A stretch of DNA of 64,000 bases from Candidatus Heimdallarchaeota archaeon (GTDB taxonomy: Archaea > Asgardarchaeota > Heimdallarchaeia > Heimdallarchaeales > Heimdallarchaeaceae). The stretch is from contig JABCTC010000017.1 of the NCBI GenBank assembly GCA_018238545.1, forward strand, positions 1-64,000, given 5' to 3'. A program made the translations under genes and the position numbers. Shown here piece by piece: positions 23,166 through 38,707 of the stretch. The notes beneath the pieces were generated by a model. The model did not search any database, was not told the origin of the DNA, and was given only the letters and a program-made list of their open reading frames with translations. Every line of letters begins with the position of its first letter. Positions within the stretch are counted from its first letter, which is position 1.

Positions 23166-23175
23166 TGCCTTACAT
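23166..23175 (+). repeat. Putative attL core TGCCTTACAT
   Basis: Identical 10-mer at 38698-38707 with further similarity downstream (TTT.CTAT..TACC). Confidence 0.55.
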
Positions 23176-23236
23176 CTTTTCTATCCTACCTTCTTGTAAA
23201 CTATCTTTTCAGATGGGGTTCTATGTAACAAGTGGC

Positions 23237-23269
23237 GTTTAACAACTGTTTAACGGGTGTTTAACACCC
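23237..23269. repeat. Three GTTTAAC repeats at 11-bp period, including the palindrome GGGTGTT-T-AACACCC
   Basis: Copies at 23237, 23248 and 23259; palindrome 23255-23269. Confidence 0.7.
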
Positions 23270-23437
23270 TTCTAATATGAACTCTTTTGAGAACTTCCAC
23301 AATCGGATTTTTACTGCTTTGTGTTACCTTTAATTCAAAGAGATTTAAAATTCAGTTTCTAAGGATCTTCAAACAAAATTACTTAGTTTTAAGATATATT
23401 CATTCTTGTATTTACTACTGTTTTGCAGAAAGATTGC

Positions 23438-24409
23438 CTATTTCTTCTTTTTTTCTTCTTTTTCTTGTTGTTGAATAATAATGGGAGTTACTTGCTTTAT
23501 GTAAGCTTTTCCTTTGTGATTTTCAATGATTTTAATAGCTGTAGTTCCATCAAAAGTATGTGTTGTGGCATGGAATAATGATAAAACTAGATCTTGAAAT
23601 GTTTGATCATCCTCAAGGTGTTCAATTATTAAGCCTAATGCTTCAGCCTGATCTCTATCAATATGACGTCCATGACTTTTGTATGTAGAATGGTCAGCTA
23701 ATTTCTCAGCAATATCTTTTGATATTTCGTCTTTATTTTCGCTATCTTTAAACATGTAATCATTAAGGAAAGTTGCAACTAAATCTTTTGACAAATCTAA
23801 AGCATTTTGACATTGAATCAATAGAGCTGGACCATATTGACCTAGAATTGGCATCCATACTCCCATGTTTTTTGAATCTTCCTTGCATTCTGCTGAAGCT
23901 TTATCAAATTGATCAAGAATAGCTTGAGCAGGTATAGAACTCACTCCTAAAGGGGTCGATAATATTATCTGAGAATCAATAGGACCAAGATAAGAATGCT
24001 TCCCCATTACAATCTTATCTGCTGCACAAGCTAACATTGTAGCAGCAGACATTGCCCCTTGAGGTATGATTGCTCGTATGTAATCATATTTTGTTCTTAG
24101 GTATTTAACAAAACTTTCAGTAACTTCAGCAGATCCACCAGGACTGTGAATAATCAGATCAAGTTCTTTTCCATCTAATCCATGAATAACTTCCATTAAA
24201 CCTTGAATATCGTCTTCTGTAATACTAATTAGTTGTGGTGAAATATTAATACTTGCTTGTGTCCATTTTGTTGCATAGATTATTGTATCCCTTTCAGTAA
24301 ATTCATTAAGCTTGTAGAGATATCGTCGTCGAATCGAATCATAAGGTGTTTTGGAACCCTTATCTTTCTTTTTCTTTAATTCGTTTAATATTCCACTCCA
24401 CGTAGGCAC
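23438..24409 (-). CDS. ClpP-class (SDH/SppA-like) serine protease
   Basis: LDLIIHSPGGS, AMSAATMLACAAD, LGPIDSQ, SHGRHI. Confidence 0.88.
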   Translation of the reverse strand: MPTWSGILNELKKKKDKGSKTPYDSIRRRYLYKLNEFTERDTIIYATKWTQASINISPQLISITEDDIQGLMEVIHGLDGKELDLIIHSPGGSAEVTESFVKYLRTKYDYIRAIIPQGAMSAATMLACAADKIVMGKHSYLGPIDSQIILSTPLGVSSIPAQAILDQFDKASAECKEDSKNMGVWMPILGQYGPALLIQCQNALDLSKDLVATFLNDYMFKDSENKDEISKDIAEKLADHSTYKSHGRHIDRDQAEALGLIIEHLEDDQTFQDLVLSLFHATTHTFDGTTAIKIIENHKGKAYIKQVTPIIIQQQEKEEKKKK

Positions 24410-24424
24410 TTTGTTCCCTCACTG

Positions 24425-24613
24425 TTAATTGATACTAGTACTATCTGATACTGAAACCACACTCTTTGGCTTGGTTTCGTTTAGGTATCGATTGGAAATT
24501 TCAAGTAATTCTATATAATTACCATAAACAATCGTTAGCTCCTCTAATCCTGGTTGTTCTTCTAACTCTTTAATAAATGATTCAATCTCCTTTTTTCTAC
24601 CCTTCTTTCTCAT
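24425..24613 (-). CDS. Small hypothetical protein upstream of the protease
   Basis: 62-aa ORF, co-oriented, ending 15 bp before the protease start. Confidence 0.55.
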   Translation of the reverse strand: MRKKGRKKEIESFIKELEEQPGLEELTIVYGNYIELLEISNRYLNETKPKSVVSVSDSTSIN

Positions 24614-24691
24614 AATTTTAGATTCTTTGTGGAAACTATTAAGTTTTTTGTAAGAATATCTATAGTTCTCGTATTAAATACAAAAGACATA

Positions 24692-35846: not shown

Positions 35847-36260
35847 GAGGAAAAGAAAGGGGTGGTACGGAGATAAGGATCTAAAGAAAAGATTGTCGGA
35901 AATTATTTCCGTTTTCCGTATAGGACACCTAATAGGTGGGGTATACGTTTCGGATTCCGTTTTATAATCTCTTGTTTCAGCCTTTTCAATGGTGAATATC
36001 GTTGTTTTAAGCTTTTCTGGAAACTGTATAATTTAGGTGAAAAAGGAGTGAAAATAGTAGAAAAGTTGTCTTTATTTACCCAAATTCGAACTATATTACT
36101 CATTTTCGAGTAACTATTTTCTAGCAAAACGGAAATTCTGGATTTTGATATTTAGATCCATTACATAATAATGGTATTGTTTTGACCTACGTGGACAATC
36201 TGTCTATGCAGGTATGATCTAAACTACCTGATGTAATGGTGTCCATTTTGGATACTGTTA

Positions 36261-36527
36261 GTTGCAATTGATGAATCAGGGAGAGAGTAAATGCAACAAA
36301 GTAGAAGAAGCTCTAGATATGATTAAAGAAGCTATAGTTGCAATTGATGAATCAGGGAGAGAGTAAATGCAACAACGATTACTCTTATGATGTATATTTA
36401 GATGAAAATTATCTGTTGCAATTGATGAATCAGGGAGAGAGTAAATGCAACACTGTAACCATTTCTGAAAAGTGTACTTATTCTATTATCGTTGCAATTG
36501 ATGAATCAGGGAGAGAGTAAATGCAAC
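36261..36527. CRISPR. CRISPR mini-array: 4 identical 37-bp repeats and 3 spacers (39, 41, 39 bp); no cas genes in the window
   Basis: Repeat GTTGCAATTGATGAATCAGGGAGAGAGTAAATGCAAC at 36261, 36337, 36415 and 36491. Confidence 0.95.
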
Positions 36528-36779
36528 ACAATGAAACAGAAAAGGCTACAGAAAAGTTATTGAATAAGAAAATATTCCGAGGATTCTTTATTAGAAGGCT
36601 TTTAAACCGACTATTAAAAAATATAAGGGATAAATTATGACTTGGGGCTTTGGTTCTCCGAGAGAATACGTTATTTCCCACGATAACCGTTTCCTTAATG
36701 CAATTAAGAAAGAGCACAATAAAACATGAATCTCTTTAGAGCTGCTTACTATAAAGGCTTGAAGTCTCAATTTCATATT

Positions 36780-36797
36780 TTATTCCACGTGGAATAA
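36780..36797. repeat. Perfect 18-bp palindrome TTATTCCACGTGGAATAA
   Basis: Read directly; same core as 35305-35322. Confidence 0.8.
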
Positions 36798-36979
36798 TTT
36801 CTGTTTTCTTGATCAAGTTATTCTAACCATTCTTTTATTTCTCATTGGTCCGAACAAATCAGCTTAAATTTACATTTCTGACATTTTTTAGAATAAAAAT
36901 TCCATCTAGAACAATTGCTGGCTTTAGCTTTTTCAATTGTTGGTAGATCCTTGTAAGTTAAATTAGCAGCAGGTTGCAT

Positions 36980-38299
36980 TTAGTTTCCTTCCTTTATTCT
37001 GTAAATCTTCTTTCTAGCTCCTTTGCCTTCTCGTTCTTCTTTGAGAGCTGTTATTTTTCCTAAATCTACTAGCTTCCTGATATGATAATAGATCCGATTA
37101 TAATCTAATTGTAAAGTTGTCATAAAGTCCTGGAGAGTATAGCTTTTTTCAGCAAGTAGTTTAAGTATTTCTGTCTGTAAGGAGTCACTCCTAGCTTGGT
37201 TAGTTCTACTTACTTTGAGAAGTTGTATTTCCTCAGCTAGAAATTCACTCTCTTTTTTCATATTTGTATCATGATTCAGGATAAGATCAGCTTGATGGTC
37301 CATTCTCTGCAGTAGCATTAAATCATTAGTTGCTGTTTGTAGCTGGTATTGGGCTAGCTGATTGACATTATTATCAACTCTTCTTAATAAATTATGATTT
37401 TCATAATAATCACTATCTAGCTGTTGGACCACATTTCTATTGTAATCTAACACAGAATTAAGTTTAGAAAAACTTTGATTGCTCGAGATTGTAAATTGCT
37501 TAAGTACAGTATTCATTTTATTGAAAACAGTCCCAATACCTAAGTCTCTCTCATTCCTTTCAAGCTGTTTAATCATTCTATCAACAGGTATATCTACACG
37601 GCTTAATTGGACTTCTTTTCGTAGTCCTTCTTTCTTATTGTAAGCTGTTAAAAGAATATTTTCAAAAGCTTGCACACTAATATAATTAGCTCCTGCTATT
37701 CTCTGAAAATCATAATCTTGGTTCAAATCTAAATTTACTAACTGCATTTTATTATGATCGCTCTTTATACTTTTCAAGTGTAAGACCGTATCAATTGCAA
37801 CAATCAAAGAGCGGAATTGATAACAATCTAAAGCTTTCTTCCATCCACTACATTTGAGATCTATCCTGATACTTTGAGTAGCTTTGTAAAAAGAAAAACG
37901 GATAGGTTGATTAAGTTCTAAAAAGGGGACATCTAATTTTTCATCTTTTCTTACAGGGACAGCTCGAATCATAATCATTACTCGATGAATGAATAAAGGT
38001 TCATCAGGATTGAAAAAGGAATCTAACTCATAAGGGATCTGTTCAAGAGGCTTAGGTTTGAAATGATAGTAGAGATATGGTTTTGTTTCTGTTCTAGCTA
38101 TAGAGTATTTTGAGCTGGTTGTTAATCTTGTTAATATTCTTCTAATACTCGAAGCTTTACAATCAGGATAAAGCTGTTTAATGGCTTTCACTATTTCCCC
38201 ACAAGTAAGCTTATGATGAGAAGATTCAATTACTGCAATGATAGCTGTAGTTAAGGAAGAATGAATATTCTGTTGAGCTGTATCTTTTACTTCTAACAA
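36980..38299 (-). CDS. wHTH, putative Rep_trans-like nickase, coiled coil and wHTH domains (candidate replication initiator)
   Basis: NLDLNQD and AYNKKEGLRKEV motifs; wHTH at both termini; GGAGGT precedes the TTG start at 38299. Confidence 0.5.
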   Translation of the reverse strand: MLEVKDTAQQNIHSSLTTAIIAVIESSHHKLTCGEIVKAIKQLYPDCKASSIRRILTRLTTSSKYSIARTETKPYLYYHFKPKPLEQIPYELDSFFNPDEPLFIHRVMIMIRAVPVRKDEKLDVPFLELNQPIRFSFYKATQSIRIDLKCSGWKKALDCYQFRSLIVAIDTVLHLKSIKSDHNKMQLVNLDLNQDYDFQRIAGANYISVQAFENILLTAYNKKEGLRKEVQLSRVDIPVDRMIKQLERNERDLGIGTVFNKMNTVLKQFTISSNQSFSKLNSVLDYNRNVVQQLDSDYYENHNLLRRVDNNVNQLAQYQLQTATNDLMLLQRMDHQADLILNHDTNMKKESEFLAEEIQLLKVSRTNQARSDSLQTEILKLLAEKSYTLQDFMTTLQLDYNRIYYHIRKLVDLGKITALKEEREGKGARKKIYRIKEGN

Positions 38300-38697
38300 T
38301 TTGAATGACCTCCTGAAGTTGAAATGATAAATGAGCGACAAGCGACATAGGGAGATAGGTTAATTGTCGCTCTTTTTTCAAAAATTTTGAAAGTGATAAT
38401 CTGTTGAATAAGAACCTTTGAAACAATAAATAAGCTAATAATTGTTACTAATATTTTTAAAGAATGTTTTTCAAAAATATAGGTAGTTGAGACAATTACT
38501 TTTTCAAAAATAATCTGTTTAACCTTCCTTTTTAGAAGGTAGTGTTTACATACGAAATACGGGTGAATAACAACAGTAGAGCTTATTAAACCCTTAATTT
38601 CCTCTGGACAATGATTCAAAGGATCTACTAGATGGTTAACTAAGTTATTCAAAGTGACAAGAAGGTATAAAGTCGTTTTAGAACCTCTGAAGCTCTC

Positions 38698-38707
38698 TGC
38701 CTTACAT
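38698..38707 (+). repeat. Putative attR core TGCCTTACAT
   Basis: Direct repeat of 23166-23175. Confidence 0.55.

Follow-up and report, generated by a model that had tools for sequence, protein, structure and literature searches.

The 64,000-nucleotide window analyzed here (positions 1 to 64,000 of contig JABCTC010000017.1, from a Candidatus Heimdallarchaeota assembly referred to as G000) contains an integrated element of 15,532 bp at 23220..38751, its extent being based on reconstruction of the empty site. The element precisely separates the two halves of a conserved chromosomal site of ~100 bp; it is real, its ends have been corrected, and it belongs to a new family. Taken as a whole, the evidence makes it likely that this is a plasmid-like integrative element of a Heimdallarchaeaceae genus, located at a conserved serine-recombinase site. 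The best reading of the site is a landing-pad system, run by a serine recombinase, like that of integrative mobile elements exploiting Xer (IMEX), and the main interest of the element is the host site and recombinase system that it exposes.

Element boundaries and the shared host site

A sequence-only reading had bounded the element by a 10-bp direct repeat (TGCCTTACAT at 23166 and 38698) and proposed a circle junction joining 38707 to 23176. These 10-mers are the outer edge of two homologous recombination sites, each copy standing 48 bp ahead of a conserved core. Based on comparison with relatives, the crossover is located 52 bp to the right of the repeat (~23218-23219 / 38750-38751), at the GT in the middle of an inverted-repeat site of 30 bp; judging from the sequence, the exchange falls within 23218-23223 / 38750-38755, with GT as the dyad centre. 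Twelve genus-mates carry the site uninterrupted (left arm, core, right arm), and the empty site that the earlier reading had suggested looking for exists. Rejoining the flanks at the GT gives 35-40/44 identity to these real empty sites, whereas rejoining at the 10-mer gives only 21-23/44. In a second sample (JGI 3300042089), the element is 99.4% identical, with identity through 38765 and different host DNA beyond 38793; in this second host context, 38708-38751 moves with the element. The reconstruction and the second host context together reject the 10-bp repeat as the attachment site, and the proposed 38707-23176 junction is wrong.

The plasmid-like integrative nature of the region was upheld, as the empty site exists and relatives do not carry the region as conserved core. 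Most element genes lack homologues elsewhere in the genome; only the recombinase, the N-terminus of a candidate toxin, its partner, and (weakly) a 79-aa gene have them. In genome G002, the two flank genes are only 1.55 kb apart. GC content is 0.330 in the element and 0.337 in its flanks, and this equality marks the element as native to the host lineage.

Across 17 distinct cores, the centre GTT-C (and with it the central GT) is invariant while flanking bases vary, and arm symmetry covers 6-10 of 13 positions; an invariant centre with varying flanks fits a 2-bp overlap (PMC5357621). The attL core has the top position weight matrix score of the genome (39.5, versus 18.1 in shuffled DNA), although this core was itself in the training set. 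The incoming arm P' follows the core in G010, G021, G002, and three junctions of G016, but not in empty sites; the host arm B' follows the core in G010 and G016 as it does in empty sites; and the element-borne arm P has a homologue in G021:C363.

Using a site model trained on the host genus, we identified the site family in 27 of 29 host-family genomes, often with two or three hits each, versus a single weak hit among 16 genomes of sister families. Related sites occur at least twice per genome, in up to four classes that share the same arms and differ in their centres (GGTT, AACC, GTCT, GGCT). The same left arm is joined to different cargos in four genomes: G010 has beta-propeller surface proteins, G002 a pair of small membrane genes, and both G021 and G016 immunity and toxin genes. 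In G016, a 1.26-kb cassette without a recombinase also lies between two cores. In relatives, this point has received both elements and small gene cassettes, in some cases in tandem, and sister elements likewise end in related sites; one contig of the host assembly (G000:C109) is the empty counterpart of the junction of a sister element on G021:C193. That the target is a conserved host site with many cargos was missed by the sequence-only reading. In G000, additional sites that combine these arms with other centres were observed at C73:43755, C94:57921, C109:12730, and C45:20620.

Two other identities for the site were rejected. There is no tRNA in the window, no Rfam match, and no compensatory pairs in the site alignment, which dismisses a tRNA or other non-coding RNA target; a short open reading frame was dismissed because stops and an indel interrupt the frame in several genomes.

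Chromosomal serine recombinases and alternative readings of the site

The compact serine recombinase encoded by the element has a core chromosomal counterpart, also missed by the earlier reading. This 249-aa homologue, here SerA, is ~70% identical to the element recombinase and was identified in 22 of 24 host-family genomes (70-99% identity) versus 0 of 235 other Asgard genomes. It is single-copy and stands alone among metabolic genes. Between G000 and the closed genome G042, SerA is 75% identical, compared with a median of 54%, which places it at the 94th percentile of conservation. A second paralogue, SerB, is ~45% identical and is present in most family genomes; in G000, SerB lies at C6:7230-7919 (L116, L333), convergent with an IF-2B-family gene. 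Separately, a third recombinase clade, ~59% identical to the recombinase in the window, was observed at the ends of related elements (L050:3103-3903, L052:7925-8713), flanked by conserved genes of 106 aa and ~300 aa.

The proposed cycle begins with a circular form whose own copy of the site would undergo serine-type exchange with the host site, at the GT in the centre. This reaction would be carried out by the compact 249-aa recombinase, either the element copy or its host paralogue SerA, and recombinase-free cassettes would use the host enzyme. Similarly, IMEX and dif modules use bacterial Xer; dif modules are bacterial cassettes that carry a degenerate copy of the host site.

Several observations weigh against this reading. 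The element recombinase sits mid-element. Element recombinases form their own supported clade, but its placement against SerA has support of 58/20, which is compatible with capture in either direction. The link between SerA and the site depends on co-distribution, which amounts to one lineage and one event, and on site shape. The absence of the site outside the family may reflect divergence, given the genus-trained model. Finally, no circular junction was found in two metagenome and viral collections, which may omit near records.

Compared with IMEX (CTXphi, TLCphi, GGI; PMC5357621), the element shares a degenerate copy of a conserved host site, insertion there, and tandem pile-up. Unlike IMEX, its host family lacks Xer, the site looks serine-type (13-4-13, invariant GT), several site classes occur per genome, and a paralogue of the host enzyme is encoded by the element itself, although some sister cassettes do lack a recombinase. 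The element thus works like Xer-exploiting elements but does not belong among IMEX, which use host Xer and have no recombinase of their own. Large serine integrases (CcrA/B, XisF) and small resolvases likewise have the catalytic domain and the start of a recombinase domain, which in the element enzyme matches NF041201 at E 2e-12, far below the cut-off; however, at 249 aa the protein is too short for the zinc-ribbon/coiled-coil region, and two of its paralogues are core chromosomal genes. Among integrated Asgard elements, HeimM1, HeimM2, HeimV1, HeimV2, and aloposons (PMC8813620) and Yucahu-i, a small plasmid-like element of Atabeyarchaeia with a helicase (PMC11529989), are comparable, but they use tRNA/rRNA sites or tyrosine integrases, and a serine recombinase is mentioned in neither PMC8813620 nor PMC11529989.

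A further function for the system is possible but doubtful: SerA (perhaps with SerB) and the sites may form a chromosome dimer resolution system, a serine replacement of XerA/dif, whose sites mobile elements exploit as IMEX do. The element would then be a true functional analogue of IMEX, and the differing central dinucleotides of the site classes (GGTT, AACC, GTCT, GGCT) would stop unlike sites from recombining. Using a XerA query above the NF040815 cut-off, we identified an orthologue in 15 of 16 sister-family genomes but in 0 of 30 host-family genomes; the host family, which includes two one-contig genomes (G042 and G045), yielded only three matches at 30-41% identity. In G001, one integrase just reaches the XerA cut-off, but its identity to the enzyme of the sister families is only 36%. 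PF00589 proteins are entirely absent from closed G042, whereas all 14 controls have one. SerA is also a core, single-copy, strongly conserved recombinase throughout the lineage, as is archaeal XerA, whose dif is likewise a conserved inverted-repeat site of ~30 bp (PMC8371274). However, SerA belongs to an unrelated enzyme family, there are at least two sites per genome whereas dif is single, and position relative to the terminus does not appear to fit. In G042 the sites lie at 0.82 Mb and at 2.12 Mb (near the origin side), neither of them at the terminus predicted by skew (0.51-0.61 Mb); based on skew sampled over 39% of the genome, one is 0.2-0.4 Mb from this predicted terminus. Skew in G001 is noisy. 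Other Asgard families lack both XerA at threshold and SerA (family f10, 0/69; family f6, 0/9), so loss of XerA needs no SerA replacement, and the swap of XerA for SerA is one evolutionary event. The same pattern was observed in families f7, f11, and f22, with no XerA at E 1e-45 in 4, 4, and 6 genomes and no SerA. According to a 2022 review, evidence that serine resolvases act in chromosome segregation in prokaryotes was lacking (PMC8987985), and no paper dealing with XerA/dif in Asgards emerged from our literature searches. The landing-pad reading is independent of the dimer-resolution idea.

It is unlikely that the sites are recombined by a tyrosine recombinase, with the serine recombinase present just as a resolvase or passenger. 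One parse of the core, with a 6-bp spacer (TGGGGT) between two 11-bp arms, is like archaeal dif (PMC8371274), and G000 holds two tyrosine recombinases on small contigs; however, PF00589 proteins are absent from 11 of 23 genus-mates and from closed G042, most of which have the site, and the 6-bp spacer varies (AGGAGT, TAAGGT) whereas the GT at the 13-4-13 dyad centre is constant.

We likewise give little credence to the view that the site serves chiefly as a replication origin or as some other regulatory site that binds protein, with elements carrying a captured copy of it and integrating by homology. The palindrome in the site resembles an origin recognition box (ORB) core, one site in G042 (site Y) lies at the cumulative skew minimum, and the element arm resembles the host arm in exact register. 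However, a canonical ORB with its G-string lies elsewhere, 10 kb from cdc6-1, and on this basis the site was rejected as the main origin. In addition, the switch falls on the same few bases in at least seven junctions, and homologous recombination would need more than the ~50% identity that the arms share. Sampled skew places the G042 origin near 2.0-2.15 Mb, in agreement with the canonical ORB at 1.977 Mb. G042 has two canonical ORB-like motifs (C1:1976979 and 244985), both orthologous in G045; the first, 10 kb from cdc6-1, fits the skew minimum and is the likely origin. Literature searches for Heimdall origins found nothing useful.

The original model of a self-contained element bounded by the 10-bp repeat and carrying element-specific weapons, while fitting the 10-mer at both ends and a gene content that is as described, is very improbable, since 38708-38751 travels with the element, the 10-bp join does not rebuild the empty site, and the toxin pair is also present where the element is not.

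In the landing-pad reading, an enzyme is paired with a probable target sequence and with natural substrates, and this in a lineage near the origin of eukaryotes; experiments on purified protein or in Escherichia coli could therefore address the claim, with no need to culture the host. If SerA does resolve chromosome dimers, the case would be one unknown according to PMC8987985; otherwise the system is still a lineage-wide gene-capture system with several sites differing in their central bases. A compact 249-aa recombinase with such sites could also serve as a genetic tool.

Gene content of the element

The gene content given by the sequence-only reading was largely recovered (Table 1), including the serine recombinase and the ClpP-class protease. 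The MCM-like ATPase held up as well, based on its P-loop, C-terminal winged helices, weak AAA/MCM_WH hits, and PF27228, a family named after a Methanothermobacter plasmid protein. Weak tblastn matches to plasmid primase-helicases were also found, whereas searches gave no MCM match among solved structures (PDB sequences) and no relatives in a genome-contig collection. From its sequence, the protein is probably a replication helicase or initiator, an MCM-like plasmid Rep. Of the roughly six ribbon-helix-helix (RHH) domains described earlier, all six are RHH-like by pattern, but only one protein exceeds the Pfam cut-off and the other five segments are matched by pattern only.

Table 1. Features of the integrated element and its attachment sites, in window positions.
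Feature	Position	Strand	Details
Host-derived left arm (B) to central GT (23218-23219), attL	23166..23219	+	Matches 12 empty sites and filled sites in G010, G021, G002, G016
attL core: 13-bp arm, centre GGTT, 13-bp arm	23204..23233		Imperfect inverted repeat; GTT-C invariant
Incoming arm (P')	23220..23277	+	Three GTTTAAC-like repeats; common to all cargos here in close kin
SDH/ClpP-class serine protease, 323 aa	23438..24409	-	PF01972 E 8e-17; NF047768 E 7e-19, below cut-off
62-aa gene upstream of the protease	24425-24613
RHH (CopG-type) regulator	24692..24853	-	PF01402 above cut-off
MCM-like P-loop ATPase, 733 aa	24856..27057	-	C-terminal winged helices; Walker A at residue ~212; PF27228 (MTBMA_p00010)
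Four small genes: 117, 155, and 61 aa (minus strand), 224 aa (plus strand)	27054..28946		Two with RHH-like N-termini; homologues in sister elements
Compact serine recombinase, 249 aa	28943..29692	-	Catalytic domain plus short recombinase/helix-turn-helix (HTH) domain; PF00239 E 1e-16
Regulatory cluster	29713..30977		RHH-like 111 and 64 aa, 82-aa gene, HTH+RHH 147-aa gene
Relic of 79-aa gene (34237-34476)	31162..31349	+	5'-truncated copy, 80% identical
Candidate polymorphic toxin, 355 aa	32046..33113	+	Signal peptide, caspase/CHAT-like domain, Gly/Pro linker, four hydrophobic helices
Candidate membrane immunity protein, 156 aa	33135..33605	+	Follows toxin gene in each locus read on both sides
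Accessory genes (116, 79, 230 aa)	33718..35232		Homologues in G010, G012, G016, G008
Conserved non-coding stretch	35233..36260		74-87% DNA identity in pieces to G021:C193, G016:C278, G012:C127
Cas-less CRISPR mini-array	36261..36527	+	Four identical 37-nt repeats, three spacers (39/41/39 nt)
Spacer 2	36374-36414
Possible Rep, 439 aa	36980..38299	-	Winged helix at each end; between them an unknown core followed by a coiled coil
Element-borne arm (P), attR (core 38736-38765)	38698..38751	+	Diverged host-arm copy including 10-mer; identical in second host context
Host-derived right arm (B')	38752..38793	+	TTCCAGTGGAA-like palindrome; directly after core in empty sites, 28-30/42 identical

The 439-aa protein labelled 'Rep-like' is at most a possible Rep: it has two winged helices, and its core gives only sub-threshold Rep_trans/Phage_CRI leads (0.78). 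This protein matched no plasmid, but it marks the element family in G021, G012, G004, G015, and G009. Searches of metagenome and viral collections for the repeat and for relatives of the Rep gave nothing, and fold searches mostly returned generic helices or winged helices. As had been proposed, an origin-like region is present: the non-coding stretch at 35233-36260 is conserved in sister elements and is probably a replication origin and array leader, from which the circle might replicate by means of the MCM-like ATPase, the winged-helix protein, or both. Two TTCCACGTGGAA palindromes, at 35305-35322 and ~36779-36792, bracket this stretch and the array, and resemble the host-arm palindrome. The regulatory cluster is conserved in the G012, G016, and G021 elements. 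A sigma-70 promoter scan was at chance level. Pfam and NCBIfam scans of the element identified no capsid, terminase, or conjugation gene, in agreement with the earlier reading.

CRISPR mini-array and candidate toxin

The array is cas-less as described, with no cas gene within the element and no copy of its repeat elsewhere in the assembly. Two sister elements have related repeats with other spacers at the same position, which indicates upkeep of the array and past acquisition of spacers. A giant-protein gene on contig C23 (2.3 kb) matches spacer 2 at 35/41 positions, including all of the first 17 bases (chance 5e-7). The C23 protein is 44% identical to one on contig C67, and the family occurs on several small contigs (a 1462-aa gene on C67; paralogues on C23, C2, C97, and C128). 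C67 (L276) carries at 4503-7864 an array-less type IV-B module (csf1, a 149-aa gene [cas11], csf2, csf3, cysH) and, by sequence reading, IbrA/IbrB-like genes. Another contig, C75 (L341:5235-8353), encodes a type I-B Cascade consisting of a 503-aa probable Cas8 followed by cas7-cas5; its neighbours are a ParA-like ATPase and a radical SAM gene, and its vicinity has no cas3, cas6, cas1, or array. The other Cas gene found in the assembly is a Cas1 fragment.

Of the earlier proposal that the element competes with other mobile elements by borrowing host Cas, the competition is supported by one spacer match; no complete host Cas system that could be borrowed was found in the assembly. The array would make guides against a rival mobile element family, probably acting through Cas supplied in trans; with the nuclease-less I-B Cascade of this genome, the outcome would be silencing rather than cutting. 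Counting against this are the six mismatches of the spacer 2 match, the lack of a target for spacers 1 and 3, and the absence of Cas6, Cas3, and any other array from the 92% complete assembly. Matches of spacer 1 in G042 (31/39) were discarded, as they fall in housekeeping genes and codon-shuffled controls reach 30. An aloposon as the spacer target was also discarded; the sampled part of G042 gave no sequence match, and only the IbrA/IbrB-like genes recall HeimV2. Array, target, and candidate effector form a trio inside one genome, including the type IV-B module. Mini-arrays of Chiyouvirus and Fuxivirus (PMC10848311) similarly have four repeats, three spacers, and no cas, with inter-element competition inferred, and type IV-B with CysH on a mobile element is also reported there. 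Unlike those arrays, the present one has a non-viral carrier, no host array with the same repeat, and a spacer aimed at a gene family of a type IV-B element. In the second sample, spacer 1 has a 21-nt internal duplication (L284), representing either real slippage or an assembly artefact. A lone diverged repeat lies 1.3-2.7 kb from the array in sister elements (L036, G021:C193:23236; L104:458) and is possibly a regulatory repeat-like RNA.

The secreted protease-toxin-like gene with a membrane partner was confirmed by motifs, hydropathy, and the downstream position of the partner. The 355-aa protein has invariant His-Gly (83-84; H84) and C118 motifs. Its model, which is of low confidence (predicted local distance difference test [pLDDT] of 53), has its best Foldseek matches to SAVED-CHAT and Csx29 (E 0.015-0.03); together, the motifs and these weak CHAT matches suggest a caspase-like processing domain. 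Among close homologues, the N-terminal 190 residues are near-invariant, whereas the hydrophobic C-terminus varies. The membrane partner also occurs in orphan and tandem copies. Polymorphic toxin systems, which are rare in archaea, have the same features: a conserved N-terminus (here with a putative caspase-like domain), a C-terminus that varies, a partner encoded downstream, and arrays of orphan partners (PMC3482391). Unlike in those systems, the C-terminus here is a hydrophobic helical peptide without a known toxin family. On balance, this architecture slightly favors a cell-killing toxin; that the activity would rest on architecture, with a poor structural model, weighs against it. The secreted protein may cleave itself and release a membrane-active peptide that the partner would neutralize.

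The toxin block is bracketed by the 79-aa gene and its relic copy. However, the pair is not the element-specific weapon first envisaged: it also occurs as separate cassettes, along with orphan immunity genes, in the chromosomes of relatives, and its presence there alone indicates that it is mobile cargo of the genus. On contig G022:C148, two more secreted proteins of 388 and 507 aa with partly toxin-like sequence were observed in a variable region (L054:2937-7056). Elsewhere in the window, a 76-bp sequence at 56064-56139 is also found just downstream of toxin-immunity cassettes at two other loci (L051 and L338; 86%).

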